From NCBI GenBank assembly GCA_044892525.1, contig CM097885.1:82894001-82958000 (forward strand): a stretch of 64,000 bases of DNA, read 5' to 3'. The notes beneath the pieces are model-generated. The model saw nothing but the letters and a program-made list of their open reading frames with translations, was not told the origin of the DNA and ran no database searches. This document shows, piece after piece, positions 24,350 through 60,217 of this stretch. The first letter of the stretch is position 1; the number at the start of each line of letters is the position of its first letter. The stretch is from Schmidtea polychroa (Eukaryota). The translations under genes and the position numbers were made by a program.

Positions 24350-24458
24350 GTTGGTGCTGCCCACACGGGTCGGAAGAAGCTAGCAGGTGAGCCTCTATCT
24401 TAAGACTACTCCTAACCCCCTCTCAGTACAGGTTCTATGGTGCCTTAGAAGGACTTAC
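24350..24458. other. Conserved structured LTR motif, copy C
   Basis: CAGGTGAGCCTCTATCTTAAGACTACT...TAGAAGGACTTAC. Confidence 0.75.
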
Positions 24459-24753
24459 CCGTTCCTACATTTGCAATCGGCCCGACCCTGGTCCAAGAGG
24501 ACGGCCTTCATTCAAGGATGCTGTTCCAGTTTAACAATTCAATTATGCATTTCACTCATCATTCTCATCATTCAATCAACAAATAAAGAAAAATAAAATT
24601 TGTATTACATTCAAAAATTATCGAGACCGAAAAATCGTACACCAACATGCAATAAACTATTGATTACATAATACCGACGAATTGTTAGATACAGAGATAT
24701 TAGTTAAAGGTCTTTTCGAAATGAGAGATGGATCCCATCGTCGGGTCGGAATT

Positions 24754-30095: not shown

Positions 30096-30122
30096 CTAAA
30101 CCAGCACCAGATCTCCGCATAC

Positions 30123-40283: not shown

Positions 40284-40311
40284 TTATTTACATCAATTAT
40301 CCCTTTTTAAT

Positions 40312-41013
40312 TTATGATCGGGATTTCTTTTTACGGGCTTTCTCAGACGCTCTCATCACTTCCGTTTCCGCTTTTATTACCCGTTTTCTCAATTCTGGCA
40401 GTACTTCTAGTTGTTTATCTCTTTCGTCTATCTGTTGTTCTAGGAATTTTATTTTTCCTTTTAACACTTTTATTTCCTGTGTTGCTCTTTCCAGGTTTTT
40501 ATGGTTTAGTATTTGTAAGAAATCATTTCCTCTTTCTTCATCTCCTCCGTCGTCTATTTCCTGGTATTTGTTGTTCATTCGTCTCATTATTTCACATTCT
40601 TTCTGTTTTTGGTGTAGTTGGAGTTGTAGCTCTTTCAGACTTTCTTGGTGTTTCCGGGCCTCGGTTTTCCAATAATCGCTAATCACTTCGTCTGCCTTTC
40701 TACGGGCCCTTTCCTGCCATAATTCTCCCGCAATCTTCTCCCAATTTCTCCCTCGTTTTCTTTGCTCGTGAAGCCATTCGTTTTCTTCCTCTACTTCTTT
40801 CTTTGCTTCTTCCAACAAAGTATACTCTTTTTTCAATACTTTAATCATTTTTCGATTATCTCTCCATCTTTCTACTAATCTTTCGTTTTCTCGTCTCTCT
40901 TCTTGTAACTCTTCCTTGATAGTTTTCTTCCTCTCCACCTCTTCTACTTCAATTTCTCCCTCTTCCAGCTCGATTATAGATGTTATGATGAGTTGTCCGT
41001 TTTCAGTATTCAT
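40312..41013 (-). CDS. Accessory coiled-coil protein
   Basis: 233-aa E/K/R-rich heptad-like ORF between AT-rich spacers. Confidence 0.7.
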   Translation of the reverse strand: MNTENGQLIITSIIELEEGEIEVEEVERKKTIKEELQEERRENERLVERWRDNRKMIKVLKKEYTLLEEAKKEVEEENEWLHEQRKRGRNWEKIAGELWQERARRKADEVISDYWKTEARKHQESLKELQLQLHQKQKECEIMRRMNNKYQEIDDGGDEERGNDFLQILNHKNLERATQEIKVLKGKIKFLEQQIDERDKQLEVLPELRKRVIKAETEVMRASEKARKKKSRS

Positions 41014-41189
41014 TTTCTATAATATATACATAATTAATAATTGCGCTACAGTGCGGCTTATACTTATACATTTATATGTAATTTTATATAATCAGGGTTA
41101 CAGTCCCGTCAATACTTTTATCGTACTATTAATTTTTTTGTTGGGATATAGGTCCCGATTTTTTATACTTTTATCTTTTCCATTTATCT

Positions 41190-42227
41190 TTATACAAAGG
41201 TTTCTTCCTGGCCTACATATCCTTCATCGCTTTCTACTGACGCTTGTAGTTGGAGTGCGATGGGATCAAATGGGATGTAGTACCGGGGAATCTGCGCTCT
41301 AAGCTCTTGGACTTCGTCTCTTAGCGCTCTTGACACGTTGAGTTCCTCGTCCAACAGGTATGTTAGATACCTGGTTTCGTCGTCCCTTACCTCGATCTGT
41401 TTTTCTAACTCTTCCGCTTTTTCGCCGTTCTCCCATTTTTTGATTTCCTTTTCGAGGTTCTTGATAATTTCGTCATACATTTTCCTCTCGTTTTCCAATT
41501 TTTTATTCTTTCCGGCTAACACTATGTTCCGTTGTTCTAGTGCCCCTTTATAGCCGTTATTGTCTCTTTCAAGGTCTGCCACCTTATTCACGAATTCAAC
41601 GATTCGACCTGACTGTTGCAGGATCATCTCTTCCATGGCGGTATTCTCTTGTTCCTTCATAGATAGTTTCATGGCCAGATGCCTCTCAAACTCCATGGCC
41701 TTGGTCTGCCAGGTTTGACTTCGGGCGGCGATTTTCCTGAGCCTTCTTAGCTCTTCTCTCTGATCAAGGTTCTCCTCCCATTTCCCCTGCTCGCTTTCGT
41801 ATTCCAATCTCTGAGGTACTTCTCTCATTTCCTTTTTGATTTCTTGATGTTGTCTTTTCCACTTTCTGGCTTCTGTCAATAGTTGGCGGGATTTCCTTTC
41901 CTCTTTTTGTTTTTCTACCTCCCGTTTTTTATTCTCGTCGGTCAGTCTTTTTCTCGATTCCTGTACCAATTGTTTTAGGTAGTGACCGTGAGCTTCCTGT
42001 CTAGTGTTCTCTAATGCTGACCACTTGGCGGCTCTTTTACATGCCTCTGCCTCTGCTCGTAAATTTTGCACCAACCACTGGAATTGGTGGTTTTCCCATT
42101 CTCTTGCTTCTTCAAGATAGTTTCGTGTCTGATTTGATAGTTGCGCCATCACTTTGGCCCATCTTTCTCTGTGTACTCTATTGATTTTTACTTCGTTGTT
42201 TGGGGCGTCAGTTCGTTCTTGTGTCAT
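41190..42227 (-). CDS. Accessory coiled-coil protein
   Basis: 345-aa E/K/R/W-rich ORF; acceptor-like TTATTCAG 6 nt before ATG. Confidence 0.72.
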   Translation of the reverse strand: MTQERTDAPNNEVKINRVHRERWAKVMAQLSNQTRNYLEEAREWENHQFQWLVQNLRAEAEACKRAAKWSALENTRQEAHGHYLKQLVQESRKRLTDENKKREVEKQKEERKSRQLLTEARKWKRQHQEIKKEMREVPQRLEYESEQGKWEENLDQREELRRLRKIAARSQTWQTKAMEFERHLAMKLSMKEQENTAMEEMILQQSGRIVEFVNKVADLERDNNGYKGALEQRNIVLAGKNKKLENERKMYDEIIKNLEKEIKKWENGEKAEELEKQIEVRDDETRYLTYLLDEELNVSRALRDEVQELRAQIPRYYIPFDPIALQLQASVESDEGYVGQEETFV

Positions 42228-42520
42228 CTTTGTCTGAATAATGATATTATCAACTCAACGTCGCACATTTATATTCGTTTTATTATTTATTTATTGTTAC
42301 AATTCGATATAGGTGGGTTGTTTTTAGAAGTTTTCCGCTTAAGTTTACCTTTAGTGGATTTGGGGATTTTTCTACACTATTATATAATATTTTACTGGAT
42401 ATATACGCCGATATTTACAATTAGTATATACAAAATTATTCGTCTCGCTACTCAGTCCTACTCTTCCCGTCTGTTCGACAATCTCTTTGAATTCTTCTCT
42501 TTGTCGCTTATCCATTTCTA

Positions 42521-42558
<38 letters not shown>

Positions 42559-42699
42559 TACGTTACTGGTACAATCTCATATTTCTATTTACAGTTATTT
42601 ACACTTTGTTTTAGGTTATATTTATTGACTGGAAGAGTCGGCCTCTTGTCCGCCCTCTTCCCTACTGGTTAACCATTCTGACCAGTCTTCTATCTCCTC

Positions 42700-42981
42700 T
42701 CATTCCATCTCTTCAGTTATTCTTATTAACTCCTCTTCCTGTCCCTGGCTGTATCGCGATATTCGCTCTATTTCTCTCTGCATTTGTTCTATTTTTATTC
42801 GTTGATCTTCGATTATTCTTACATAACTGAAGCCTTTATTTAAACTTTCGACTAGATTTCTTTGTACAGACAGTCCTTGTTCTTGTAAATTTGAAATTAC
42901 TTGAGCTAGCATTGCACATTGTTGTTTCCACATCTCTTCGGTGGTCGTGCTGTGATTTCCTTCATCGCTTATTCGCTCCAT
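42700..42981 (-). CDS. Small accessory coiled-coil protein
   Basis: 93-aa ORF flanked by AT-rich spacers. Confidence 0.5.
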   Translation of the reverse strand: MERISDEGNHSTTTEEMWKQQCAMLAQVISNLQEQGLSVQRNLVESLNKGFSYVRIIEDQRIKIEQMQREIERISRYSQGQEEELIRITEEME

Positions 42982-43149
42982 TCTTAATTTATATATACTT
43001 TCAACCCTTATCTAATTTTAATTTTTATGTTATTTATCCCCATCATTATATAATATTGATACCGCGCTTATATAGAGATATAGAATACTGTTATATAAAT
43101 AAATATTACATACTTACTTTTTACAGTCTATATACAGTCATAATCCTTT

Positions 43150-43944
43150 CTATATACGTGAGTTTGGAGGGCGCTGAGCATTCCAGGCCTCCACCCACTG
43201 TTCCTGCTTGATATTATTTGGTCTTTTTACCTGATGTTGAAAATTTCTGATTCTGGTCATCTCCAGTTCTCCGCGATGCCGTCTATCTTTGATTATTTTT
43301 ATTGTTCCCCCCGTTATGATTAAAAATGCCCCTGCTATTATTATACCGCTGATCCACATCATTTGTTTTACGCTTATAATTTCCGATTTTTCTTTGCTCG
43401 TCATGATGAATATCGTCTCCATATTATCCGGACTCCCGCCTTTACTATTCCCTTTTATCATTCCCCGTATTCTTGCTATCTCTTCGTTCATACCTTCCTT
43501 TGCCATCTTTTGTATTTTTTCCATCTCCTCCTCTGACACATAATTGTCCTGATATTTCTCACTGGTTTTCTTGCGTTTTCCTTCCTCCTCTTTTTCATCA
43601 TTGAGTTTTCTTTTCTTCCCTCTTTTCCCAGGGTATCGTCGACATTCTCTTTCTGGACCGTTTCTCAGGATACAGACCGTATATTCCTTTGGCGGTTGTT
43701 GTTGCGTTACATATTGTAGGCAGTCTTCTCCTGGTCCTAGTCTTGAAATACAAACTTTGTGCTCTTTCCTTGGCTGAAGTTGTGTTATCACTATCTCACC
43801 TCCTTTACTCAGGTGTACCTCTTTCCATTTAACTTTTGTTATTTTCTTCCCGTTTCGATGTTGGTACGCTTCTTGTATTCCCACTTCCGTTATTGGTTCC
43901 GCATCTTCATTTTTTAACACTAGTCTCTGATAAGCTCTAGACAT
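43150..43944 (-). CDS. C-terminal polyprotein segment with TM helix
   Basis: Same frame as 43951-45531, separated by one TGA; TM MMWISGIIIAGAFLIITGG; short internal repeat KEHKVCISRLGP/KEYTVCILRNGP. Confidence 0.7.
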   Translation of the reverse strand: MSRAYQRLVLKNEDAEPITEVGIQEAYQHRNGKKITKVKWKEVHLSKGGEIVITQLQPRKEHKVCISRLGPGEDCLQYVTQQQPPKEYTVCILRNGPERECRRYPGKRGKKRKLNDEKEEEGKRKKTSEKYQDNYVSEEEMEKIQKMAKEGMNEEIARIRGMIKGNSKGGSPDNMETIFIMTSKEKSEIISVKQMMWISGIIIAGAFLIITGGTIKIIKDRRHRGELEMTRIRNFQHQVKRPNNIKQEQWVEAWNAQRPPNSRI

Positions 43945-43950
43945 GCATCT

Positions 43951-45531
43951 TCATAATATACACCTTTCTTTTAGATCCCATTCTTCTTTTAGATCCCATT
44001 GTTGCTCTTGTACTTGCTTTTTCTTTTCTTGTTTTAGTTCTTCCTCCTTGTTATCTTTGTTTTCCGTTTCCTTGGCTTCCTTTATCGTTCTCATTCCTCC
44101 ATGGGCTGTTATCATTTCCACCATTGTTAATACGAGTATCATTATCATCATATTTGTCTCCATTTCTTTGTTGGTAAAAAGTAGGCATACCCTCTGTTTT
44201 CCATTATTCGTCTTTTCCTCTTCTTTTGTTTGGTTTCCCAGTTTATTTTCCGTCTTTTCCATACTTGAGTCGTTATTCCCTTGATTATTCTCTTCTGGTT
44301 TCCTTTTCTCTCCGTCATCGTTTCGCCCTTTTTCATCCTTATCGTCGTCTTTATCGTCTTTATCTCCCCCGCTGTCGTTTAAAATGTCGTCCTCGACATT
44401 TATATCATTCACCAATCTGCGATATGCTGTTAGCACTCTATTTCTTGCTAATTTCGCTTCGAACTCAAATTCTTTTCTTCCCGTTGCTGCATGTCTCTTT
44501 CTATTCCATTCTTTTACCAATTCTCTTAATTGTACCCGGCGATGTTTTCCGATTCGCTTTTGTTCGTTTTGATTTTGCGTGAATTTGAGGTCTTCTCTGT
44601 TCAATACGATTAATATAATTTTTGGAGTTCCTCCCTTTGTTAGTGTATTTTTAACCATTGCATTTTCTCCGTTTTCGTAGAACTCATTGATGTTCACTGC
44701 ATATTTATTGCTTTGTGGTATTCTCCATGTTAACAGTAACTTCATGGCTTTTAAGTTTTTCCGTATCGTATTCCATTGGAACTGTGACGTGTTTTTACAG
44801 ATATTTTCTACCTCGGATCTTGTCGCATTTTTACAGATGAATCTAATCATTTCCAAGTTTGGTTGTATTGTTGCCCAATCCATGGTGGAGTTTCCTTCAT
44901 TCGATATTTCGTCGAGTATTGATCCTGATTGATGTAGTATATGTAATGTTTTCGGGTGTATATTTGTTATTGCTGCATACATCATTGCTGTTTCTCCTTG
45001 TTCATTTTTTGCATTAGATTCTTCTCCTAAGTCTCTAAGAATTCTTATGATGGTTATTGCTCTGTTTTCTTTTGCTGCTAATATTGCTTGTTGTAATGGT
45101 GTTCTTAAATCTTTTGTTGGTATGGTAAACGCTAGTGGTATGAATGTTTTTATTTTACCTATGTCTAGATTTGTGGTTTGATCTCTTGCGTAGGTGTGTA
45201 CTGTTTTTATTATTTTTGCCAGTATCGCTTCATCAGATAAATCTCGCATTTCTTCGAAGAACACCTCTTTGGCTTTGCGTATTATTATCTCTTGGTCTGA
45301 GTTTATTATCTTGGTTTTACCTGTTGTTGTTATATCAGTTATTATTTGATCGACTTGTTCCTCAGACTCTCTTGCTTTTACTTTCTTTATTTTTATCTGT
45401 TTCTTGTTTGAACTAATAATGCGTTCCTCCGCCGTAAGAACTTGAATAATACTTAGGTAGTTTTCTCGAATGTTATTCATAGTCTCCATCATATATAGAA
45501 CACTCACAATTTCCCAATATTTTACTTGCAC
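43951..45531 (-). CDS. Polyprotein segment with second ankyrin-repeat module
   Basis: RTPLQQAI, NEQGETAMMYAA, SNEGNSTMDWA; overlaps the integrase ORF end by a one-base frame change. Confidence 0.8.
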   Translation of the reverse strand: MQVKYWEIVSVLYMMETMNNIRENYLSIIQVLTAEERIISSNKKQIKIKKVKARESEEQVDQIITDITTTGKTKIINSDQEIIIRKAKEVFFEEMRDLSDEAILAKIIKTVHTYARDQTTNLDIGKIKTFIPLAFTIPTKDLRTPLQQAILAAKENRAITIIRILRDLGEESNAKNEQGETAMMYAAITNIHPKTLHILHQSGSILDEISNEGNSTMDWATIQPNLEMIRFICKNATRSEVENICKNTSQFQWNTIRKNLKAMKLLLTWRIPQSNKYAVNINEFYENGENAMVKNTLTKGGTPKIILIVLNREDLKFTQNQNEQKRIGKHRRVQLRELVKEWNRKRHAATGRKEFEFEAKLARNRVLTAYRRLVNDINVEDDILNDSGGDKDDKDDDKDEKGRNDDGEKRKPEENNQGNNDSSMEKTENKLGNQTKEEEKTNNGKQRVCLLFTNKEMETNMMIMILVLTMVEMITAHGGMRTIKEAKETENKDNKEEELKQEKKKQVQEQQWDLKEEWDLKERCIL

Positions 45532-48130
45532 TTTATCGGTAAATTGAGATATAGATTTTTGAAGTTTGTAATTCGCTTTCTGATCAGCTGTTCGTCTTTA
45601 TGGTTTGAGAGTTTTATACCCCGTTGTAGTAGTTGATTTGGGATTTCGAATAGATGATGCCCTCTCATAGCTTCTCTCATCAAGGTGTTTTCTCCTTTGG
45701 TAAATGTTTCGTTTATATCCACCATATAATCGTTTTTCATCGGGATTCTCCACGAAATTAGTATTCCAGTAATTGTTATTAATTTCCCTTTGATAGCGGT
45801 TAATAGTCCGTCGTACATGTTTCCTATCTCTCTGTTATCTTCGTATGACAATAGATCTAATAAGGTTATGAATGCTTCAGTGCTTTTTCCTTCGATTGCA
45901 TGATGTAGTGCATTTTTCTGATCGTGGTCTTGTGTGGTTATCTTTGACCCGGTTTCAAGTAATGCGATAATAATATCTTTAGCTTTATCCCGATTTGCTG
46001 CTATCATTAGTGGAGTATAACCTTGATTGTTTTCTTGGTCTGTTGAAACGTTACAATCGCGAAATGCTTCAATTGTTTCTAGTATTTGTTCATTATTACC
46101 AACCTTTAAAAGCTTGTGCAGTGGTGTATCTCCATAGTGGTCTGTGATCGTGAATAATATAGGCCATTGACTTTTAACTATCCTGAGCAATGGGTGTGTT
46201 CTTTCTCGATTTGCATAGTTTTCTATCGTTGTTAGCAGACCTCCCAATATCTCAAAATCTAATCTATCTTTCGCCCATCCGGGTATTTTAGCTTTTACCT
46301 CTTTTATGATTTTCTCTGCTTCTGATGGTTGTAGCCCCAGTTGATTAGTCGTTGGTTCGTTTATCTGCTGTAACATATTTATTCTGTATGTTTGTGATCT
46401 TGTTGTTAGTGTTCGCCCTTCTGGCTGGCTGGTAGCTGTTTTCGGTATGGGTTTACAACGTGCAACGTTTACATATATTGGCCTTGTAAAAGGATTGTTT
46501 ACCAATCGTACTCTTACATTAGTTTCTCCGACGAATAGAATCTCATACGGACCTTTGCCGTTTCGTTGCAATTTTTTGGTGGTTCCTGGAATCAATTCTG
46601 GTGTTTCAATCATCACCCAATCACCGGTTTGAAATGTATGTTGTTTAACGTTTTTCTTTCTATCATGCAGATCTTTATAACTTTCTTGATAAAATTTTAT
46701 GTTTAATCCTGCAGTTTCCCAGATTTCCTGCATTCTTTCCTTGAACTTGGTTACATAATCGTCTATTTCCATATATTGTGATATTGGTGGCTGATACTCT
46801 AAATCCATTGGCATATTGCATTCTCTGCCGTACATCAACTTGAACGGACTCATCTTTGTGGATGCGTGAATTGACATTCTGTAAGCCATTAAGCACAGTT
46901 TTATATACTCATCCCAGTCTCGTTGATGACGATCGACATAATTCGATAACATTTGGATCAATGTTCCATTGAATCTTTCTGTCATACCATTTGTTTGTGG
47001 ATGATACGGTGATGTTCTTAATTTTGCAATCTTGAAGTAATTGGTTACTTCGCACATTATTTCGCTCATGAAATTTGTTCCTTGATCAGTTAATATCTGT
47101 TTTGGTGTTCCATACCGACAGCATATCTTCTCTACTAGTATTTTTGCGATTGTTTTCGCTTTCTGGTCTGCCATGGCGAATGCTTCGGGGAATTTCGTCA
47201 AATAATCTGTGATCACCAATATATACATATTTCCTCTATCCGATTCTGGTAGTGGACCGACTACGTCCATTGATATCATTGTCATTGGTTCTGCTGGTAC
47301 TGGCATTGGTTTTAATGGTGCCTTCCATTTTGTTCCCGTGTTCTTTCTGGTTGCGCAAGTTATGCAATTTTTTACCCATTCCGTTACGTCTTCAGTCAAT
47401 GTAGGCCAAAAATACTTTTGTTTCATTCGGGCTAACGTCTTTTTAGATGACATATGTCCTCCGAGTCTTCCGTCATGATACTGGGTCAGCAAATCTTTAC
47501 GTCTATTCTCTGAAATGCACATCAGTCTTTTATCACCATCCATTATCAATAACCAATCTTTTTCTATTATATATCGATGTCGATGTTTATCCATATGTTC
47601 TTTCAGTTTTTGATCTTTCTCATATACCTCCGCTTTCCCTGTTTTCACATATTCAATAATTTGCTTCAACTCTGTATCCTCTTGTTGGTCTTTTCGTAAT
47701 TGGCAAAAATCTAAATCTTCCGCTACCATCAGACATATCCGTTGCATTTCGTGATCTACTAAATCTGGAAAGATAAATCTTGACATACAATCTGCATTGG
47801 CATTCGCTCTTCCCGCTTTGAATTTTATGAACGGTGAATATTCTTGTAACTGCATTGCCCATCGCATCAATCTGCTTGAAGCTTCTTTGTGCTGTCCGAG
47901 CCATACTAATGGTTGATGATCAGTGGTTATGCATATTTCGTGACCCCATAACAAATATCGAAAATGTTTAATCGCTTGTATTATAGCTAACGCTTCTCTT
48001 TCTGTTACTGAATAGTTTTTCTCATGCTTTTTAAACGTTCTGCTGTAATAGCCGATTACTCTTTCTTTTCCTTCTTCATCTAGTTGTCCCAGTATTGCTC
48101 CGGCTGCATATCCACTTGCATCTGTTGCTA
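45522..48130 (-). CDS. pol: RNase H (C-part), integrase and first ankyrin module
   Basis: ATDASG/EALAI/ITTDHQPL RNase H; H..GH..C..C zinc finger; MDVVGP, TDQGTNF, TERFN catalytic D,D,E; GDTPLH, GYTPLMIA, KNALHHA ankyrin repeats. Confidence 0.95.
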
Positions 48131-50371
48131 CAAGAATGGTTTTTTGAAATCTGGATGTACTAGTATTGGGGCTTCAATCAATTTATCTCGTAATGTCTCA
48201 AATGCTCTTTGTTGTTCTGCACCCCAAATAAATGAAATATCTTTTTTCACTAATTCCTGGATTGGTTTCGCAACACTTGCGTAGTTTTTAATGAATTTCC
48301 GATAATATCCGCATAATCCGAGGAATTCTTGAACTTGGGTAACAGTTTTTGGTGCTGGACAGGTTTTTATTTTCTCTATATTTCTGGGATCTGGTTCTTT
48401 GCCTTTTGCTGACACTATGTGTCCTAAAAACGTAACTTTCTCTTTTGCCCAATCACATTTTGATGGTTTGAGTTTCAATTTCCATTGTCGTAATCGAATG
48501 AAAACGTTTCTGATATCTTCCAAATGTTGTTCAAATGTTGCTGAATATATTAATAAATCATCAATATATACCATACACTGCTTGATCCCGTGGGTGACAA
48601 AGTTCATGCACCTTTGAAATGATGCTGGGGCATTGGTCAGTCCGAATGGCATTTTCCTGAATTGGTATAGATCTCGACCCAATGTGAATGCTGTTTTCTC
48701 TTTGTCCTCCTCTTTGACTTTGATCTGCCAATATCCGCTCTTTAGATCTAAAGACGTAAAGTATGCGGCCCCCTGTAACATAAGTAACATCTCATTGATG
48801 TCTGGTAATGGGTATGTGTCTCTTTTCGTTACTGCATTTAGTTTCCGATAATCGATACAGAATCTCTGTGTACCGTCCTTTTTCTTCACCATGACTACCG
48901 GAAATTGCCATGGTGAACAACTTGGTTCGATCACTTGTGCGTCTAACATCTTTTGTACTTCTGCTTCGGCTATCTCTTTCTGTTTTTCGGCTAGTTTGTA
49001 TGGACGTAGTGCAATCGGGGTTTCGTCTATTAAGGGTATTGCGTGTAATGTGACATCGCATGCTCCCAAATCTATATCCGAAATGGCGAATATATCTTTA
49101 TATTCTATCAGTAATTGTTGAAGTTTTTCCTTTTCCTTCTCCGTTAGCAAGGTGCTATCAATTATCCATAATTCGTCAGCTTTCATTGTTTCGTTGGTGA
49201 CTTTTGGTAATTCAATATCCATCATGGGTGTCAATCTACCCAATCTTTCATTTTCATATATGATCTTGTCTTCTTCCTCGAAATTCGTGATGTTGATTGG
49301 TATTTCCTCTTCTTCATTTATGGTTATTATTTCTCTTGCTAATGGTAATTCTCGTCTTTTCTCGAATGATTTGCTTGGCTCAAAGATAGCTTCCCCTTCT
49401 AATCCAGTATCTACTTTTATTTGACATATCATCTGTGATTTCGCTGGTACGATTATTTTCTCCGGGCATCTGATTATTGCGTTCATCTTGCATATTCTAC
49501 CCATTTTATCTTTCAGACACATTGTTGTTAGATCGATTACTACTTCCTTGAACAGTTCCGGCATTAAATCTGTTCCGATGATGCATGGTTCGCTAAGTTT
49601 GGGTATTACTGCCAGGTAAGTTTCGATTTCATTATCTTGATATCGCAACGTGGTCCACCATCTTCCTACTACATCCACGGTTTCTTTACTGCATGCAATA
49701 ATATGAATAGTTGTTTGTTCGATGTCTTTCCAATATTTACTGGGTATTTGGTTTATTGCTATTGCTGATACATTCGCTCCAGTGTCTATCATTGCGCTCG
49801 TCTCTTTCCCGTTGATTTGGATCATGACTGTTACTGCTGCTCCTCCTGGTGAGCTCATTACTGCTATTGTTCTTACGTCATCGGCTTGGTCTACGCTTTT
49901 GGTCCTTCTAGTTGGCATATAATTCATTCCTGGTTGACTTGGTAACTGTGGATACATATTTTGTGTCATGGTCAAAGCTGTTTGTTGTCCAACGATATCC
50001 GGTGGTATATAACTTCCGTTGGCTATCCAGGTATTTGTTTTTTCTTTCTCCCAGTATGGTGCTGTTTCTATTTGCTTTTCGTTCGGGTTTCTGCTTGGGT
50101 ACGGATATTTGTCATTCCCGTTATCATCATCATCACTATCACTGCTGTTTGATCGATTTCTAAATCTGTCTAAAAATTTTGGTTTGTTCTTTTTTAGTTG
50201 CGCCCTCGTTGCTTCATCATACATTGTTTTCCGGAATCGTCTGCCAACTTCCTCGTCAGTCCCTTTTATTTTTGTCAGTATTTTGATTAATCGTTTTATT
50301 CTGTGTATATCTTTTGAATGACCGTGTAACACCATTGTTTTCGCCAAAAATGGTAGGAAGCCTACTATCAA
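48128..50371 (-). CDS. pol: Glycoprotein tail, aspartic protease and reverse transcriptase
   Basis: MIDTGANVS and CIIGTDL protease; PWQFPVVMVKKKDG, FCIDYRKLN, LDLKSGYWQ, MPFGLTNAP, YIDD RT. Confidence 0.97.
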   Translation of the reverse strand: MIVGFLPFLAKTMVLHGHSKDIHRIKRLIKILTKIKGTDEEVGRRFRKTMYDEATRAQLKKNKPKFLDRFRNRSNSSDSDDDDNGNDKYPYPSRNPNEKQIETAPYWEKEKTNTWIANGSYIPPDIVGQQTALTMTQNMYPQLPSQPGMNYMPTRRTKSVDQADDVRTIAVMSSPGGAAVTVMIQINGKETSAMIDTGANVSAIAINQIPSKYWKDIEQTTIHIIACSKETVDVVGRWWTTLRYQDNEIETYLAVIPKLSEPCIIGTDLMPELFKEVVIDLTTMCLKDKMGRICKMNAIIRCPEKIIVPAKSQMICQIKVDTGLEGEAIFEPSKSFEKRRELPLAREIITINEEEEIPINITNFEEEDKIIYENERLGRLTPMMDIELPKVTNETMKADELWIIDSTLLTEKEKEKLQQLLIEYKDIFAISDIDLGACDVTLHAIPLIDETPIALRPYKLAEKQKEIAEAEVQKMLDAQVIEPSCSPWQFPVVMVKKKDGTQRFCIDYRKLNAVTKRDTYPLPDINEMLLMLQGAAYFTSLDLKSGYWQIKVKEEDKEKTAFTLGRDLYQFRKMPFGLTNAPASFQRCMNFVTHGIKQCMVYIDDLLIYSATFEQHLEDIRNVFIRLRQWKLKLKPSKCDWAKEKVTFLGHIVSAKGKEPDPRNIEKIKTCPAPKTVTQVQEFLGLCGYYRKFIKNYASVAKPIQELVKKDISFIWGAEQQRAFETLRDKLIEAPILVHPDFKKPFL

Positions 50372-52230
50372 TTTCCAATTTACTTTCTTTCTCTCTTATA
50401 GATATCAAAACACGCTAACATTTGAGTCAATATTACTCTGACAATCTGAATAATTAAGATGATTCCCAGTATTCCTGCCATCATTTGACCGAACACTAGA
50501 AATCTTCCCCACATTGCTTTCATCATGTTCGACGTGGCTTGTTGAAAATGATCTGGTGATAATAATAGTTCATAATTGGGACCTGATTGGAAATTTGTTC
50601 CACCAGTTATGGTAACCATATTTGATAAAATGGATTCTCGCCTTGCTGGGAATAGTACGTTTAGTCATGCTGTTTCTAAATCCTCTGGTGAGTACATACC
50701 TGCTTTTGACACATCAATTGGTTTGAAATTTTGTTCTGTTGCGAGTTCTATTAATCCAAACTTTTTAGGTTCTTGTACTTCGGTTTTTACCGGTAACATT
50801 ATCCATTTCCCATCGGGTTTTTCATAATATGGTCCGTATGCATTTGAACAGTTAAAGGTGTTCGGATAAAATCCAATTTGGTTCATGATTCTAGTGACGG
50901 GTTGAACGAATCTATTCTGCCCTTTGTAACTAATTTCTAATTCGTTTGGACATTTTCCTGGTGGAATTGTGGGTTTTCTTGGCATTCGCGCAAACGTCTT
51001 GGTACATGCATATGTATACATCACCTCTCCTACCATCCTGCCAAAATGTCCATCCGGTAACGGGAGTGATGGCATCGTGTTATCTGGGTGTGTTATTGCG
51101 ATGACTAATTTTGTTTTTAGTATCTCTTTATTCAATGAACAGTCATTTTGTATGAGATCGTAATATACTTTTTGCATTGTCGTTTGTCCTCGATGAAATA
51201 AAAAGTCCATTTTGTTATTGGCATACAGGTACAGCTTTACGTCCTCTGTTGATATCTTCCCCACTGCTCGGTCTATTACTTGTCTTGACATGTAAATGCC
51301 TGCGTAGTTGGTTCTGTATACTATGCTGTCACATTTGGTGGTCTCTTTTTCTCTGATGAACCTCATACCTATATCCGGATCATCTGTAATTAGTGCCGTT
51401 GGTGTTTTTTGTGTTGTGAGTCTTTTTTCTTTGGGTGATGGGGGAACTGGTTTTCCATTTCGCATCCTTACGTTTCCATTCTCTTCATCGTCATCTTCGT
51501 TTTCATAAATTTCTCCTTTTACTTCATTGAATAAAGCACTTTTTAACAGTTGGAGTCGGCATTTTTGGGTGTTAGCTTCATATATTATGGTCGAAATTCC
51601 CGTCCTACACACGTTTTCCGTAGCTCTGCATGCTGGGTTGGTTTTCATTTGATAATTATTTGCGTCGAATTGCGCTTCGTATTCCTTCAACTCCACTGTG
51701 TAGGATTCGATTACTACTACCCCCGATATCACCTCTCCTCTGATCGTGTAGGTGCCCCCGTTGCATGATCCATCAGTTGATTTTACTCGTCCGGCTACAT
51801 AGATGCTTTCAGTCTTGATCATTCCGCTTTGTCCGTGTATTGTTACTCCATCTCTGATTCTCATCGCTCCGGTTCTAAAAAGCTCTTTACAGTCTTCTCG
51901 TTGTATAGGTACTATTTCTTTATATAATCCGGGTAGTATGAGAGTTGAATATGAATATTGCCCACAGTAATATGCCAACACCTTCTTTGATATTACGCAT
52001 TCTCTTGCTTGTGTTCGGATAAAATCTGACTCTTGATATACGTGATAGGAGACTTTCTTTTTTACTATATCTAATTTATTCGGAGACGCCTGTCTACATT
52101 CCTCTATATCTCTCAGCGAGTACTTTTCTCCCATTACTGAATTGTCACAGTCGTAAATTGTAAATCCTGCTGCTCCGCTTGTGCATAGCATCCATATCAT
52201 CATGGTCATCATTAAAGAGTTGATCGATGC
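50340..52230 (-). CDS. env: Env-like class III fusion glycoprotein (chuvirus G / gB-like) with signal peptide and TM
   Basis: Signal-like MMTMMIWMLCTSGAAG then FTIYDC..YSLRDIEEC..C..YCG..DC..G..AG..DGSC.G..YANNKMD..C..GEVMY..C..C..EL..F.QP.TRI..C..Y..GKW; TM FLVFGQMMAGILGIILII; one in-frame TGA at 50665. Confidence 0.82.
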
Positions 52231-54726
52231 TTTCCTGCTGGCTGGGTCTTTCATTGGCAATTCCCATTCTAGTTCGTTTAGCAACTTCTTCAACCGAATT
52301 TGCATTGATCTCTCTTGTTCGTTTTTTCGTGGCGCTTGTATAAGCCTTTTCCACCCGCCGGCGCGGATAATATGTGGCTCAATTGTATTTTCAATGATCG
52401 TAACTGTCATTTCTACATGGTTTGCGAATTGTTTGTTAGGTATTTTCCTTGCTGCTAATCCCATCAAATTGTACATTAGATACGTTAATACCACTAGATG
52501 ATGTTCGTCGTCGTTCGCGTTTAGAGTTAATTGTTCAATTACTCTCCTTGTCTCTTCCCAATCTGTTTTAGTGGTTTTTGTTTTCTCTTTGATTAATTTC
52601 GGAATTATTCCGGATATTGTATTCCATAGTTGTCTGGCGTCTACGCTTGCTACTTTTCGTTGCCATAACCGTCGCAATTGTAGGTTTGTTATTATTAACA
52701 TATCCTTTACTAGCTCTCGTATCCATTTTTCACCTCTTTCGATTGTTGGTTGGGCCTCTCTCAGATCCCACACTATTTTATCCAGTTTCTCCAATCTGAT
52801 TTGTCCTTGTTCTTGTTTTAGTTGTTCTCTGTTTTTAAATTCTGGTTTTTCTCCTTGCTTCCTAGGTCTTCCTTTTGCCCGTTTCTCCATCATTGTTCCA
52901 GCTTCCCTTGTCATTACGTAACTCGGGTTTCTCTCATTATCTGTTCTTGGTAATGAGCTATCGTTGTTTCTCAGCCACTCATTCCATTCGTCTATTATTT
53001 TGTCCGTTTGACCTTCTGGTGTTACTTTTGTTGGTCCTTTTTGTCGTTGGAATTGTTCGTCGGTTTCGGTTTCGGTTTTATTATCGATAATCTCCTCGAT
53101 ACTCAGCTTACTTGGTTGTTGATAGCTAGTTGACGGTTGGTCTGTGGTCCAGATTTCTGCCCCTGTCGGCCATCTCACCAGAATTGGTGATCTTTCTTCC
53201 GCTCCTTCGTCACTATCTTCTAATATGATTTCCTCGATTTCTTCGGTTTCATTTGATTTGCTTGGCACCTTGTCAGGACTTGGTGTACTTAAGCTACCTT
53301 TCGTGGTTTTACTGGATTTGGTTTTCTTTTTGATTGGTTTTCCCAACGTTTCTGCCAGTGTCAATATATTGATCTCCCCCAGTCTCATGGGTGTTATTCC
53401 GACGTCTGCATTATCATCTAATGATTTTCCGAATAACTGTAGGTGAAATGGAGTTTCGTAGGCTAGTTTATTTTTTAATTCCCTGATCTTCGTTGTTGGG
53501 TGCACTTCTATATCCTCAATGCTTTTGTCGGGATACTTGACTCGGATACTATATCTTTCTTGGGTATCTTGTGCCCACTCTTGATTCCTCCATTTTCTAA
53601 TGATTTGTTCTAGCTGTTCTGGATACCATTCGTTATACTGTCGGTATTCCTCTATCGCTTTCGCCATTTCTCTTAGATTGTGGATATTCTCTGATGTCTT
53701 TAGGATGATGTTGGCCAATGCTATTACCTGTCGTTTTTGATTTTTTGCTCCCATTGCTAAGATATCACCTAATTGTTTGTATCTTTCCTTCTCTTCTCGC
53801 TCTCGGGCTTCTATCGCTTCCTCACTGTCCATGTCGGCATATTCGCGTTCCTTCTTTCTCATCGCATGAATATGTCTGGTTTCCGTTTCACTTTCGGACG
53901 TGACGTCCGCTTCGCTTTCGCCGTCCGATACCGGTTCTACTTCGTCCTCTTCGTATTTTGGAGGTTCATCTTCCTCTTCTTCTGATTCACTTTCTGTCTC
54001 GCCAATGTCTGTTTCTACGAAAATTCCTTTCCTGACTTCCCACTCTTTATTTTCCGCATTCCACGCCCTTTCCCATGGGGTTCGTCTGCAAGATCTAGTA
54101 CTCAGTTTTTTTATTTTTCCTTGTAGCTCCTTCTCTTTTAGCCATTGTTGATGAATTTCAATTATCTCTACTGATTTTTGGTATAGCGTTTTCATCCTGT
54201 CTCGTATCTCTTTCTGGTATGTTACATCTCTTGTTCTGAATTCGTCCATGGGCAATATTCTAATTATTTGGTGATTATCCCACATTCCCATTTCGCTTAA
54301 CGAGGTATCGTCCTCTGCCCGTAATATTATTTTATCGTACATCATGACTACGTCATCTATCATGCCATCACTACTCTCGCTTCGTACTTTTTCCGTTACC
54401 TCTTGGTTTATCTTTGATACTAAGTCATCCACCGTACTCTGATTGCTCATTTTTATTCGTCGTTTCTCCTCGTTTGGTAACCATATGGTTATTTCCAATT
54501 TCTTTAGTTGCGTTTCTTTTAACCTTCCATATTTGTGGATCAAATTTATGGTTCTCCAATCGCTCATCCTGAGCAATTCTGTATCTCGTAATCGGCTCAT
54601 TAGTTCATGCATAGCTGGGGTTCGTTTTGCTATGAGCAAATCCCAGTTATCTTCAACTTGTTCTTGGATTTGTTTGATTAGTTTATCTAGATTTCGTCTT
54701 AAGGTGCATTGTTTTATTTTTTCCAA
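50665..54726 (-). CDS. Polyprotein segment: ubiquitin-like domains, acidic linkers, Bcl-2-like domain, glycoprotein ectodomain
   Basis: 1353-aa ORF; UBL-like at ~54500-54250 and ~53555-53360; BH2-like IEPHIIRAGGWKRL with GGW at 52351-52359. Confidence 0.8.
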   Translation of the reverse strand: MEKIKQCTLRRNLDKLIKQIQEQVEDNWDLLIAKRTPAMHELMSRLRDTELLRMSDWRTINLIHKYGRLKETQLKKLEITIWLPNEEKRRIKMSNQSTVDDLVSKINQEVTEKVRSESSDGMIDDVVMMYDKIILRAEDDTSLSEMGMWDNHQIIRILPMDEFRTRDVTYQKEIRDRMKTLYQKSVEIIEIHQQWLKEKELQGKIKKLSTRSCRRTPWERAWNAENKEWEVRKGIFVETDIGETESESEEEEDEPPKYEEDEVEPVSDGESEADVTSESETETRHIHAMRKKEREYADMDSEEAIEAREREEKERYKQLGDILAMGAKNQKRQVIALANIILKTSENIHNLREMAKAIEEYRQYNEWYPEQLEQIIRKWRNQEWAQDTQERYSIRVKYPDKSIEDIEVHPTTKIRELKNKLAYETPFHLQLFGKSLDDNADVGITPMRLGEINILTLAETLGKPIKKKTKSSKTTKGSLSTPSPDKVPSKSNETEEIEEIILEDSDEGAEERSPILVRWPTGAEIWTTDQPSTSYQQPSKLSIEEIIDNKTETETDEQFQRQKGPTKVTPEGQTDKIIDEWNEWLRNNDSSLPRTDNERNPSYVMTREAGTMMEKRAKGRPRKQGEKPEFKNREQLKQEQGQIRLEKLDKIVWDLREAQPTIERGEKWIRELVKDMLIITNLQLRRLWQRKVASVDARQLWNTISGIIPKLIKEKTKTTKTDWEETRRVIEQLTLNANDDEHHLVVLTYLMYNLMGLAARKIPNKQFANHVEMTVTIIENTIEPHIIRAGGWKRLIQAPRKNEQERSMQIRLKKLLNELEWELPMKDPASRKASINSLMMTMMIWMLCTSGAAGFTIYDCDNSVMGEKYSLRDIEECRQASPNKLDIVKKKVSYHVYQESDFIRTQARECVISKKVLAYYCGQYSYSTLILPGLYKEIVPIQREDCKELFRTGAMRIRDGVTIHGQSGMIKTESIYVAGRVKSTDGSCNGGTYTIRGEVISGVVVIESYTVELKEYEAQFDANNYQMKTNPACRATENVCRTGISTIIYEANTQKCRLQLLKSALFNEVKGEIYENEDDDEENGNVRMRNGKPVPPSPKEKRLTTQKTPTALITDDPDIGMRFIREKETTKCDSIVYRTNYAGIYMSRQVIDRAVGKISTEDVKLYLYANNKMDFLFHRGQTTMQKVYYDLIQNDCSLNKEILKTKLVIAITHPDNTMPSLPLPDGHFGRMVGEVMYTYACTKTFARMPRKPTIPPGKCPNELEISYKGQNRFVQPVTRIMNQIGFYPNTFNCSNAYGPYYEKPDGKWIMLPVKTEVQEPKKFGLIELATEQNFKPIDVSKAGMYSPEDLETA

Positions 54727-54728
54727 TT

Positions 54729-55600
54729 TCAGCTTGATATTAAAATCGTATTCGGCTTGGCGTCTTTAGCCCATTCATGAACATTGGTTGGTTGTTTCTC
54801 TTTATGCAACTTTAATATTTGGGTTTCTCCTGGCCAGATCAATGCATCTATTAAGTGCATGTCTGGTTTAATTTGTTCCCCTTGATATTGATACAGGTAT
54901 TCTTTCTTTCTTGAACTGCCCAAATGTTCTCTTATCCAATCGAAAAGCTCGTCTGTAACTATTTCTTATCCATATTCTCTCGAGCCCTTTACTCGTTCCG
55001 ACTTTTATTACGTAGTGTGTTGTCTCCGCTTGTTTCATCTTTTCCATATATTTCTTTATTATCGTTTTTTCCTCGCTTGGTATTAAATCTTTTTCGTTTC
55101 TTTCTAGTTTCATTATCTTTTGTAGGACGCGTCTATATGGTATAATGAAAATAAATTCCTGGTTTCTTACCACCACTGGAAGTATTTCTTTTACTTGTTT
55201 TATCGCTTCTTCTCTTTCTTTTCTCAATTTCATCTCGATATTCTCATCTTCACTTTCACTTGTCACGTCGCTTTCACTGTCATCTTCATCTGCTCCGATC
55301 TTTTCTCTTAGTTGTTCGATATTTTCATTTAACTGGAATATTTCTCCGCCAAGGCTACTCACATAATCCTCATCGTCATCCGTTGATAATACCTTCTTTG
55401 TCGTCCTCATCATATTAATTCGTAGATTTCGCATTCTTGGTACTTTCTTTAACTTCTTATGCTCGAATATCGTTAAATCTTCTGAGTCTGATTCTTGTAT
55501 CATATCATGATTTAGATGATTAATCTGTTTCCCATTTTCGTTATTTTCTGCTTCCGTTTCTGTTTTGATTTTCTCGTGTTCCCTTTCGATTTTATCTTTT
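54729..55600 (-). CDS. Polyprotein segment after gag with SUMO/ubiquitin-like domain (frameshifted)
   Basis: Joining the 211-aa and 64-aa ORFs gives HYVIKVGTSKG..FRL....KEYLYQYQGEQIKPDMHLIDALIWPGETQIL, a beta-grasp-like pattern. Confidence 0.55.
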
Positions 55601-55640
55601 ATCTTTTTCCAGAATATCTTCTGAATTCTCTGATTTCCTT

Positions 55641-57340
55641 TTAACGGTGTTGTTGGATTTTCTTTTTTAGCTGCTGTAATCGTTCCTTTGGTTTCTCTGG
55701 TTCGATCAATGGGACTACTCTTGGATTTTTCCCATAATTATAGCAATACTGCTCTTTTATCTCTTTTACCATTCTCATCATATTTATTCGTAATGGTTGT
55801 TCTTGTCGCTGCTGAATTCGCTCTCTTTTTATTCTTTCTTCTTCAGCTTGTAGTCTCTGCCATTCTTGTGCATGTTGTTGTACTTCATAATTGTTAAGAT
55901 TCTCGGTGCTCCTCATCATACGTATATTCTGAGTTTGTTGTGGTGCTGGTTCTTGTCTTGGTCTCATCATTTGTTGCATCATTTGTTTCATTTGGGAAAT
56001 TTCTTGCATTACATTCATTTGTTTCCCCTCACTGGGGTTACCTTGTCGTTGCGGATTTGGTGTATAATTATTATTCCGTTGTGGTGGTCGTTGTTGTTGA
56101 CTCCTTTCTCGGCATTCTCTTGAGATATGACCTGGTTGACCACAGTTAAAACATGTTCTCATTTGGCATATGTTTTCCGTGTGCCCTCGTCGTCCACACC
56201 TACTGCAATTTGCGTTTCGGTAACAATCTCTATTCCAATGCCCTGGTTTACCGCATGTTCGGCATTGTTTGTTATCGTTCGCATTTCGTCGATTATTAAA
56301 ATTGTTCCCATTATTTGAGTTGTTGCGTTCGTTGTTATTCCCGTTTGATCGTCCGTGTGGTGGTTTGAAAATTTGATGCGCACCTGGTATAAACTGATTC
56401 ATCTTTGGTTCGTGATTGTTGTCATCTCCATTTTCCGTTTTCACTGTTGCTGTTGCGATTCTTCCCTCCTCTTGCATGACATTCATTTGTGCTGGGAGGT
56501 GTAGTTCGCATCTTGTGGCCCAATCTATGGCCTCTTCTAGTGTTTTACACATTTGACATCCCACCGAGGCTCTTACCTCTTCCCGGCGTAGTCCTTCTAT
56601 GAAATACCCAATTAAAATTTCCTCCGGCAAGTTTCCGTTCATGGCCTTTTTTGCCAATCTTCGCAATTCGCTTGCGTATAACGTTATTGACTCGTTTGCT
56701 CTTTGTTTTCTACTTCCCAGTTCGCTTAACGCTTGATTTATTGGTTTGCTGGCTCCGAAGGTTTTCCTCAGGAATGTTTTGATATCGTCCCATTTATCTA
56801 ATTTCGTATTTCTTTCTTTAGCTTCTAAGTACACTTCTAATGCGCTATCGCATAAAAACAACGGCATCCTTTTGCTAACTGCTTCAGATGTCCATCCACA
56901 CACATCGATATAGACTTCAAAGTTGGTTATGAACGTTGCCAACTTGTTCGCATTCCCGTTGAACGGTTCGCCTCTAAATTTTTCTTTATACTCGTCGGTT
57001 CTTACCACATTCGTCATGATTGGTTCTTGAAACTCTATTCTTTCTTTTAAATTTTCCAGCGATGTCGCTAAATTATGGACGGATAATTCTTCTGTTGACC
57101 CGGTTAGGTTGTTTGTTATATCAGATAGGCTTTCTCTGCTTCTAGATCGACTGGGCGTATATCCGGCTGTGGGGTTTTCTTGATCGTATATCTGTGTTTT
57201 GTTAGTTCTTTTTGCTCCTTGTGATATTCCTCTCTGATGCCTAAATGATCGTCCTTTTTTGAGTTGGTCTAATTCGTCTCCTGAAAATAATACGTCTCCT
57301 CGCTTACTTGAAGATCTAAGGTTGGGTTTATCCGTGATTC
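55641..57340 (-). CDS. gag: Gag (capsid plus three CCHC zinc knuckles)
   Basis: FNG....FITNFE..W.....LFL.DSAL capsid pattern, QRANESITLY..LRRLA; CRTCGKPGHWNRDC, CSRCGRRGHTENIC, CFNCGQPGHISREC; frame open without ATG up to ~57340. Confidence 0.95.
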
Positions 57341-57865
57341 TTTCTTACTCTTTTCTGTCTTTTCACGTGGATTTTTCTACGGTTAGCGGCTGCTGAATTG
57401 GGCAAGTTCGGTTCTGATAGTGTTTCCTTCGAGGAATATTCCGCGTAATTTCTCGGCTGATTTCCGGAGGAGATATCTGAGTCCTTGATTGACTTCTGCT
57501 AGTACGTCGATGCTAAGTATTTTGATAATTCCGTCGTAGATAAGAATGTCGTTGTTGTCTTCCGTGTTTGGGTGGGTTTGTCTTCTGTTGAGCGGGTTCT
57601 GGATTGGCTTGATTGGCTGGATTGGTCTGATATCTAGAATGAAAAAATGATATCGTGTTGCATTTGCTTACACGAATCAATCATTCCTTTTTGCCACATT
57701 CAAGCACAGACACCGTTTTAGGGCCTCTGTTATGCTCCTCTTCTTTTCCCCATATAATTCCTCGTGGACTATAATTACCCATCAACCCATAGTTTTCGTC
57801 GATTTTAAATTATCTATATGGGGTAGTCACAATTATCTATATGGTCGTATTAATTATCTACAGTG

Positions 57866-58345
57866 CTAACTGAAGTAAATCGTGTTCTTCTCCTTTATCA
57901 CACATACACATAAAGAACAATGCGTTAAACTGACGGCGCATTCGTCACAATGGCTAAGGTGTCCACAAGGTAGAATTAGAATTCTGGCAGGTCGCGTCTT
58001 ACAAATGTTACAAGTTCTCAAGGCCGCTGCTTTCTCTACTATCGATGTTCGTATTCTCTGAGACAGAGTTTTTACTTGTTCGCGTATTCTCACATATTCG
58101 ATGTTCAGAGCGGGGTCGTCGAGTCGTTGCTGCATCCATTGGTAATGGGTAGACAAGTCGGTGTCGGTGTTTGTTGCTCCCAGTTTATTGGTTAAATAAT
58201 TTTGTTTTGATATCAGAGGTGCATCGTGGCGTTGTTGTTCCAGGGTCTCTATTTGTTGCAGTTTTTCCCTTAACGTCTTTATGGAATCGTTTTCTATGTC
58301 GACGAACCGGCTTAGTCGTTGTAAATGTTGTCGGGCTTCTGACAT
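57866..58345 (-). CDS. RING-finger protein (IAP/MDM2-type C3HC4) in the 5' leader
   Basis: Coiled coil then CNICKTRPARILILPCGHLSHCDECAVSLTHCSLC at the extreme C-terminus; acceptor-like TATTTAG 2 nt before ATG. Confidence 0.88.
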   Translation of the reverse strand: MSEARQHLQRLSRFVDIENDSIKTLREKLQQIETLEQQRHDAPLISKQNYLTNKLGATNTDTDLSTHYQWMQQRLDDPALNIEYVRIREQVKTLSQRIRTSIVEKAAALRTCNICKTRPARILILPCGHLSHCDECAVSLTHCSLCVCVIKEKNTIYFS

Positions 58346-58751
58346 GTCTAAATAAGTATGTTGTCATTACTCGGTCTCACTTAAAAAATTAAAAATAATA
58401 TTATTGTGTTATAATCAATATTTGTTTGGCTTTTATTCGCTATTGTTTTATATTTTATTCACTCTTTGATAATTTTCCCTTTTTGTTTAATAACTTAGAA
58501 TTAAACAGAATTAGCCAATTCCCATTTTCTTTTCTCATCATTCTCAATCACATTCATTCAAGCTCATTTAGATTCGTTTATATTCATAGTATGCTCTATT
58601 TCACACAAAACAGCTCGTATCATCATTCTAATGCACTATAATATCGATTCATTTCAGTCCCGTTCCATTTTTTATCATAATTAATTAAATTGTTAATCTA
58701 ACACGTCATACCCAATAATAGGTAATCAAACAAATGAAATTAATAAGTGAG

Positions 58752-58776: not shown

Positions 58777-59487
58777 TGTTGGGTGTACGTGGGGGAAATG
58801 GATAACTATTACTAATATGCACACAAACTCTCATCATTCCGCTCAGACGCTTCCCTCGTACACGCCCCATGATCATGCAAATATTCCCACGTATGAGCCC
58901 GTAGTGATGTTCTACGTTGGTGCTGCCCACACGGGTCGGAAGAAGCTAGCAGGTGAGCCTCTATCTTAAGACTACTCCTAACCCCCTCTCAGTACAGGTT
59001 CTATGGTGCCTTAGAAGGACTTACCCGTTCCTACATTTGCAATCGGCCCGACCCTGGTCCAAGAGGACGGCCTTCATTCAAGGATGCTGTTCCAGTTTAA
59101 CAATTCAATTATGCATTTCACTCATCATTCTCATCATTCAATCAACAAATAAAGAAAAATAAAATTTGTATTACATTCAAAAATTATCGAGACCGAAAAA
59201 TCGTACACCAACATGCAATAAACTATTGATTACATAATACCGACGAATTGTTAGATACAGAGATATTAGTTAAAGGTCTTTTCGAAATGAGAGATGGATC
59301 CCATCGTCGGGTCGGAATTTCAGAACGCATCTCCATCGGCGAATACTTCGTCTATGTCTACTGGCAACCTGCGATCCACCAGATACTTAATGCCCTCGGC
59401 TGGAACCACTTTGAATATCTCCTTGGCCGGAATTACGTGGGTGGCTGAGATATCCTTAATTGTGGACTGGGCCATGGATAAAGAAGC
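58777..59487 (-). mobile_element. 5' LTR remnant (U5 end plus end of the LTR ORF; motif copy D at 58950-59024)
   Basis: Identical by eye to 24211-24921 (offset 34566). Confidence 0.92.
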
Positions 59488-60180
59488 CATAAGTTGATTT
59501 CTTTATATGGCTGTCATGAGGGTAATAGTCATTATTTTTTCCTCTCATATTTGTTTGATTCGAATTATATATTATTGATTTATTTTTATTAGAGTAATCA
59601 TAATTATCGTACCCATTTATCCTTCCTCTAGCATCTCTCCCATCTACAAAGCCTCTGCCGGATACATCCTGGCAATCAAGATCACAGGATGGTGGAATCA
59701 TTATTCGATGCGCTGCAGCTATCTGTCTTCCAGGTTCGGCTTCAGGTCTGCCAGGCTGATGTCCATAGTCCAAATCGTGAGGCGGAAGGGTCATGTCTCG
59801 GTGTCCCATCGTCATCTGCCGATTCAGCGCAGCTTCATTTCTCCCATTGTTTTGGTCCTTTAAATAAATATTATTAAAACTCTTTATTTCTTTATCAATA
59901 TTTTTATTGTTTGCATTATTTTGGTATCCGCTCTCCTGGACTCTTGTGAGCAGAGTAATCGCCCTCTGGTCCATATCTGCCGCTCTCTTCATCTTCCCAT
60001 TCAGGGTTTGCTCCACATAAAGAGCTGTGTTCGAGTATCTCTGTAGCAGCCGCGTCCGAATCCGGTTCCAGCATTGTGCAAGATCATCTCCGCCTTTCGC
60101 CCTTCCTGAATTAAAAAATACAATTAACTTTTCGCTGTCACGGACAATTTCTGCCCAGTGCAATTGAATGTTATATAGGT
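59488..60180 (-). mobile_element. 5' fragment of the NeSL/R5-like family, 3'-truncated
   Basis: Translation GKMKRAADMDQRAITLLTRV..HDSHIKKS matches the N-terminus of 26616-30095 with substitutions and an indel. Confidence 0.85.
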
Positions 60181-60217
60181 TCTTGATTTTGGACATCATT
60201 GTTTTTCAATAATATTG

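Follow-up and report, generated by a model that had tools for sequence, protein, structure and literature searches.

A diverged Bcl-2-like domain directly upstream of env in a Burro-type giant retroelement of Schmidtea polychroa

A retroelement on the minus strand of a 64,000-nucleotide stretch of Schmidtea polychroa DNA (contig CM097885.1; hereafter the window) carries, directly before its env region, a helical domain that recalls Bcl-2 and has no NWGR at its BH1 position. The locus raises the question of whether this domain is a true relative of Bcl-2 and, if it is, what an element of this kind would do with it.

That Burro elements carry a Bcl-2-like cargo is already known in print (PMC6431247). 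This account, which credits the observation to Grohme 2018, places the BCL2-like motif directly upstream of env, with a ubiquitin-like domain (Ubl) before the motif and env between the motif and the protease; it also gives a length of 4,873 aa for the Burro1 polyprotein and suggests interference with host apoptosis. The same review offers neither a structure nor selection data nor a mechanism for the motif. Burro1 protects stem cells by an anti-apoptotic activity credited to its BIR/RING region, according to Lee et al. 2026 as cited in PMC13465017, and BURRO1 is transcribed upon loss of SMEDWI-2 (PMC8532177). Literature searches found no functional study of the Burro Bcl-2-like domain, although such a study could be present in Lee 2026 or the supplements to it. 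The present analysis adds selection data, a Gly-to-acid change shared among families, the absence of the domain from four related elements, and a topology that can be tested.

Architecture of the element and its relatives

The element is assigned by its architecture, as described in PMC6431247, to the Burro-type giant Gypsy LTR retroelements. It spans more than 35 kb in the window, nested insertions included, with identical LTR ends 34.6 kb apart. Its features, in order along the minus strand, are the following:

58777–59487, minus strand: upstream LTR, 3′ part; ends in CCCAACA, followed by the PBS-like TGGGGGCTCAGCCGGGAT
57866–58363, minus strand: accessory ORF with a C3HC4 RING (PF13920, E 2e-8), upstream of gag
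55641–57344, minus strand: gag, with Retrotrans_gag and CCHC knuckles
54868–55737, minus strand: part of the polyprotein that lies after gag and before the frame with the Bcl-2-like domain; no confident family
50665–54765, minus strand: 1366-aa stop-to-stop frame, a fragment of the disrupted polyprotein, with the Ubl, the Bcl-2-like domain and the larger part of env
53443–53547, minus strand: weak ubiquitin-like match (PF00240, E 0.17; E 5.7e-4 in sister family C, introduced below)
52858–52872, minus strand: GRPRK basic motif upstream of the Bcl-2-like domain, present in sister family B too
50665–52164, minus strand: env, N-terminal part (PF24664, Monjiviricetes fusion glycoprotein, E 7.7e-52)
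48128–50395, minus strand: end of the env region, aspartic protease and reverse transcriptase (Pfam scan and the order in another copy)
45522–48173, minus strand: RNase H, integrase and first ankyrin unit (Pfam scan)
43951–45597, minus strand: second ankyrin unit and polyprotein tail (Pfam scan)
24211–24921, minus strand: downstream LTR, 3′ part; 711 bases identical to 58777–59487

Both 711-base LTR repeats end in CA, and their identity indicates that the insertion is young. The PBS-like sequence behind the upstream LTR presumably resembles a tRNA-Pro site. Like Burro/GYPSM1 (Jurka 2007 and Grohme 2018, via PMC6431247), the element exceeds 30 kb and encodes a single polyprotein close to 4,800 aa (4,700–4,817 aa here), with gag, Ubl, BCL2-like domain, mononegavirus-like env, protease, reverse transcriptase, RNase H and integrase, as well as ankyrin and RING cargo. 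The Burro1 domains BIR and MATH gave no Pfam match in 13 frames of the window and four frames of another copy, which take in part of the accessory regions. A PDB search with the Ubl region likewise returned no match.

The first-pass annotation, made from the letters of the window, had embedded the domain in a polyprotein. It does lie inside the 1366-aa frame that continues into env, but the polyprotein of this copy is split into several frames. In another copy the order is gag, env, protease, reverse transcriptase, RNase H, integrase and ankyrins. A genome search for copies produced 897 candidates, 150 of which were scored; their identity is 93–100%, the domain is free of stops in 145, and intact frames of the length given above surround it in 67 (hand count).

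Four gag-env-pol or env-pol polyproteins from ENA (P0003–P0006) were available for comparison. In none of them did the profile of the Bcl-2-like domain score above 0, and this absence indicates that the domain is a lineage-specific addition. The counterpart of the GRPRK motif, which we take to be AT-hook-like, is GRPK/GRPP in three of them (P0003–P0005). All four have env before pol, and each has two or three aspartic-protease-like stretches. The GAG-ENV-POL errantiviruses with a gB-type env, known in Platyhelminthes, Nematoda and Bryozoa, resemble the present element in having env between gag and pol (PMC13524379); the words 'bcl' and 'burro' are absent from the main text of that source, and the four such polyproteins compared here are without the domain.

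Several further reading frames accompany the element. Downstream of pol, the window holds four accessory ORFs (39603–43950, minus strand) of 226–354 aa, which are coiled-coil-rich or have a hydrophobic segment and belong to no confident Pfam family. Another copy has an accessory ORF with a RING and a TRAF-type zinc finger downstream of its polyprotein (L117:8926–9999); the likeness of the window to that copy stops at about 42472, and the window ORF at 41190–42254 has no Pfam match. Non-LTR retroelement-like ORFs, judged by eye from their translations, are nested in the Burro element at 26448–33413 (plus strand), 35067–36260 (plus strand) and 59456–60205 (minus strand), and an inverted fragment at 59484–60178 in the upstream LTR is 84.5% like the 5′ end of the nested non-LTR element. 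DNA-transposase-like ORFs, also recognized by eye, lie at 12019–13681 and 17100–19172 (minus strand). The ORFs at 3724–7246 and 24754–25389 (minus strand) resemble the upstream region of another copy of the window's own family and are perhaps further LTR or element remnants; 6020–6207 matches L118, and 25170–25484 matches L116. Contigs of two runs presumed to be RNA cover the domain region wholly or partly, and give no evidence on expression.

Relationship to Bcl-2 and constraint on the domain

The helical segment ending in a BH2-type motif was correctly described at first pass, and it is found on the minus strand together with the following landmarks:

52321–52752, minus strand: Bcl-2-like helical domain, aa 672–815 of the 1366-aa frame; seven predicted helices
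52480–52521, minus strand: BH1-equivalent NANDDEHHLVVLTY, with DDEH in place of the cellular NWGR
52342–52383, minus strand: BH2 motif IEPHIIRAGGWKRL, from sequence and alignment

Searching the genome with PF00452 and PF24664 recovered three further polyprotein families (B, C and D; that of the window is family A), in each of which a Bcl-2-like domain occupies the same position immediately ahead of env. Between families A and B, the alignment runs without a break through the domain and env, at 31% identity over 767 columns. Sixteen rows were chosen for alignment from 42 distinct domain variants, which represent the four families of this one genome. The window's domain is 18–22% identical to those of B, C and D, and the alignment with these sister families places HHLVVLTY, at and just after DDEH, at the start of helix 5. 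GGW, whose conservation in relatives mattered to the first-pass annotation, is invariant in 16 of 16 rows across the four families, and is kept in all 33 family-A copies matched, these being the best-scoring ones.

Profile comparisons consistently lead to Bcl-2. A cut-out of the window's domain has Bcl-2 as its top Pfam family (E 0.015, 16.2 bits, below the cut-off of 31.4), this family ranks first in seven of seven domain cut-outs from the four families (E 8.7e-7 to 0.018), and three family-B copies (L052, L067 and L073) pass the curated cut-off. The domains of families B and D stand nearer to the canonical type. A profile built from seven non-Burro Bcl-2 domains of the same genome scored 13.8 bits on the window's domain, against 1.4 on its reversed sequence and at most 2.2 in 50 shuffles; under the same profile, all 16 Burro rows beat their own best shuffle. 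When a Burro-only profile was run against the PDB, Bcl-2-family chains made up 59 of 60 among the matches listed (best E 8.3e-4), and the helix 4–8 region aligned gap-free to Bcl-xL. HHalign of the Burro profile with the seven non-Burro domains gave 95.3% and E 2.4e-8.

Searches with the single sequence of the window's domain were silent: a large protein collection gave no relative (322 candidates, of 751–2391 aa only), 50% representatives gave 0 matches, PDB sequences gave nothing, and neither did the ESM Atlas (best 0.80). The Burro alignment, run against proteins of 72–252 aa, retrieved 0 of 1150 candidates. These searches thus found no Bcl-2-bearing relative from another species, all four families coming from one genome. 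The silence of the single-sequence searches, together with the position of the window's own domain under the Pfam cut-off, is what would be expected if an amphipathic helical linker merely resembled Bcl-2 by chance. We regard such a coincidence as very improbable, given that four families match Bcl-2 independently, some copies over the cut-off, that shuffled and reversed controls fail to score, and that the profile searches (PDB and HHalign) converge on the same family. Pfam, the Burro-only profile and the shuffle controls all sustain the Bcl-2 likeness originally claimed, and on these sequence comparisons the domain is very probably homologous to Bcl-2.

Predicted structure points in the same direction with less force. 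AlphaFold, run on the Burro-only alignment, produced seven helices with pLDDT 59 and pTM 0.54, a moderate model whose full-length helix order is Bcl-2-like; the single-sequence model (pLDDT 48) was unusable. Foldseek against the PDB returned 42 Bcl-2-family rows out of 46 (TM up to 0.53, best E 0.22), and its top viral row was an adintovirus Bcl2 (TM 0.62, E 0.30); no row reached E 0.001 or better among PDB or viral models. In VIA, all nine rows aligning at least 110 of the 144 residues belong to the Bcl-2 family (Z 6.5–7.8), but unrelated helical repeats head the list (top Z 8.8), and the best Bcl-2 row, at Z 7.8, is tied with such repeats. For the Bcl-2 fold expected at first pass, the nearest structures are indeed Bcl-2 chains, but no E-value is significant and the model is of limited confidence; the structural evidence is supportive, not decisive.

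The domain is under strong purifying selection. Over its 144 codons, the window copy and a second subfamily show 59 synonymous and 10 replacement differences, the latter mostly conservative. The dN/dS of the domain is about 0.02 in family A, where dS is near saturation, and 0.12 in family B; in family C it is 0.46 on few changes, above the 0.076 of the env of that family. Regions flanking the domain are constrained too, with 0.053 for the upstream linker and 0.006 for the stretch from GGW to env, the most conserved of those tested in family A. Since the whole polyprotein is constrained and the family C ratio is 0.46, selection does not indicate a death-related role. It does bear on the proposal that the domain is a decaying passenger, that is, a captured Bcl-2 gene fragment retained only since the frame must stay open. 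The low identity of the window's family to the other three and the family C ratio would fit such a passenger, but the codon counts largely refute it and GGW and the helix pattern are retained across deeply diverged families, which leaves this proposal with hardly any credibility.

The BH1 position, the membrane segment and the possible role of the domain

The absence of NWGR, remarked on at first pass, holds for the window's domain and extends to all four families. Among the best-scoring copies matched, a sample biased to intact ones, NWGR is replaced by DDEH in all 33 of family A, by NRDK in 18 of 19 of B, by DRDV in 30 of 33 of C and by DKEV in both of D. The Gly position is acidic (Asp or Glu) in 33/33, 18/19, 32/33 and 2/2 of these copies, respectively, and the Arg, the normal partner of the BH3 Asp, is replaced by His, Lys or Val. 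A Gly-to-Glu change at this very Gly abolishes heterodimer formation in Bcl-2 and makes the worm protein CED-9 insensitive to EGL-1. The Arg-Asp salt bridge is a hallmark of BH3 binding, and mouse Boo, which is without NWGR, bound no pro-apoptotic partner (PMC5691656). Judged by the sequence of its BH1, the domain is not a canonical pro-survival Bcl-2 member, and the change of the Gly to an acidic residue in all four families, together with the loss of NWGR, argues against classical BH3 sequestration.

Loss of NWGR is nevertheless no proof of a closed groove, since M11L, N1L and F1L have no BH motifs and affinities for BH3 are tabulated for all three; M11L and F1L bind BH3 peptides, F1L those of Bim, Bak and Bax (PMC3847314). 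Vaccinia A52 and B14 have a Bcl-2 fold with no groove and act against NF-kB (PMC2494871). By analogy with the poxvirus proteins A52, B14, M11L, F1L and N1, the Burro domain may be regarded as a diverged Bcl-2 fold without NWGR, borne by a mobile element and possibly acting independently of a groove. Unlike them it keeps a BH2 that can still be recognized; A52 and B14, for their part, are said to be soluble proteins (PMC3847314). PDB-profile and Foldseek searches gave no sequence or fold match to poxvirus Bcl-2-fold proteins, and the parallel is confined to function. With cellular Bcl-2 proteins, the domain shares the BH2 GGW, the gap-free alignment of helices 4–8 to Bcl-xL and a hydrophobic segment at its C-terminal side; it departs from them in having DDEH for NWGR, a score below the Pfam cut-off, a location within a polyprotein and an anchor putatively borrowed from env. 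The segment concerned is:

52165–52227, minus strand: hydrophobic segment before the env ectodomain; probable internal env signal peptide, which may also act as a tail anchor for the Bcl-2-like domain

This segment starts 47 residues after GGW in family A, 49–53 in B, 21 in C and 33 in D, and its KD peak is 1.40 in A (weak), 1.96–2.03 in B, 1.99 in C and 2.43 in D. The polyprotein of another copy shows no hydrophobic peak of 1.3 or more in its first 1,787 residues; one first appears at residue 1,788, in the segment that opens env. If the segment is an internal signal peptide, established membrane-protein topology would keep Gag, the Ubl and the Bcl-2-like domain cytosolic. Signal-peptidase cleavage would then leave the env signal helix as a C-terminal anchor of the domain, placed where cellular Bcl-2 proteins carry their tail anchor, and the domain is predicted to be held by it at the cytosolic face of the membrane. 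Release from Gag would be carried out by the element's own protease.

Such an arrangement could serve a classical pro-survival mimic, whose groove would sequester host Bak/Bax-like BH3 helices despite having no NWGR, as in poxvirus M11L and F1L. This is unlikely, even though the Bcl-2-like helix order runs through the full length of the model, BH2 is retained in all families, a tail-anchor-like segment follows the domain, multi-BH proteins are present in the host, and F1L, itself devoid of BH motifs, sets a precedent by binding Bim, Bak and Bax (PMC3847314). The acidic residue at the Gly tells against it, as does the replacement of the Arg, partner of the BH3 Asp, by His, Lys or Val (PMC5691656), and the env signal would be expected to direct the domain to the ER, not to mitochondria.

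The same topology could also reflect structural reuse, with the helical bundle acting as a matrix-like or spacer module that, by way of the env signal helix, connects Gag with the membrane while particles assemble, and with no role in host signalling. The constant placement of the domain, after Gag and ahead of the env signal in each of the four families, the very low dN/dS from GGW to env in family A and the loss of the BH3-binding motif are all compatible with this explanation. However, the four related polyproteins without the domain indicate that assembly does not generally need it, and the domain sits among other host-type regulatory cargo; we consider structural reuse doubtful, to about the same degree as the classical mimic.

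The reading that we prefer, at a probability of about 0.5, is that of a diverged Bcl-2 domain in a gag-env-pol polyprotein, predicted to be membrane-tethered, which likely dampens host death or stress signalling via a surface other than NWGR. A host partner would be contacted by a surface outside the classical NWGR groove, with an effect on cell survival. In its favour, the element has further cargo of RING, Ubl and ankyrin type; against it, the anti-apoptotic role reported for Burro1 is credited to BIR/RING. If this reading were true, planarian cells would receive a membrane-tethered Bcl-2 mimic from a retroelement that has hundreds of young copies, one helix would serve both as env signal and as Bcl-2 tail anchor, and the host-transposon mutualism reported for Burro1 would be extended.

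Possible origin of the domain

Bcl2 homologues have been noted in adintoviruses (PMC8502044). Like the Burro domain, the adintovirus/Polinton Bcl2 is a Bcl-2 cargo of an integrating virus-like element, and it provides the top viral fold match in the Foldseek comparison; unlike it, these are stand-alone genes with a near-canonical BH1 in which the W is kept. Multi-copy Polinton/adintovirus-like elements occur in the same genome (L053–L058, L046–L051 and L119–L127) and include a TBP gene and a Bcl-2 gene that stands alone, along with an integrase, an A32-type ATPase and a long polymerase-sized ORF; in one of these families, what looks like a short intron interrupts the Bcl-2 frame.

Applied to the non-Burro Bcl-2 domains of the genome, the Burro profile gave 31.1 bits for L042 and 20.7 for the Polinton gene L053, with the other nine at 8.5–18.4. 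In the tree, the Burro rows fall on one side of a branch supported at 89/94 and are joined to L042 and the same Polinton gene at 80/89; AU tests did not reject L031 or L038 as the Burro sister (p 0.064 and 0.063, respectively). A shared origin of the Burro and Polinton Bcl-2 is weakly suggested by these comparisons. A bolder scenario, which we consider quite improbable, is that Burro took its Bcl-2 gene from a lineage riding on planarian Polintons, with the env signal doubling as tail anchor and the acidic residue in place of the NWGR Gly turning the protein into a survival factor that does not respond to BH3 and could not be switched off by the BH3-only proteins of the host. The domain would then give Burro a second means of opposing cell death, next to the IAP arm already published.

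Elsewhere in the genome, a canonical Bcl-2-family gene with NWGR is present in seven nearly identical copies (L031–L037) clustered within 0.9 Mb (G000:C4, 89.9–90.8 Mb).
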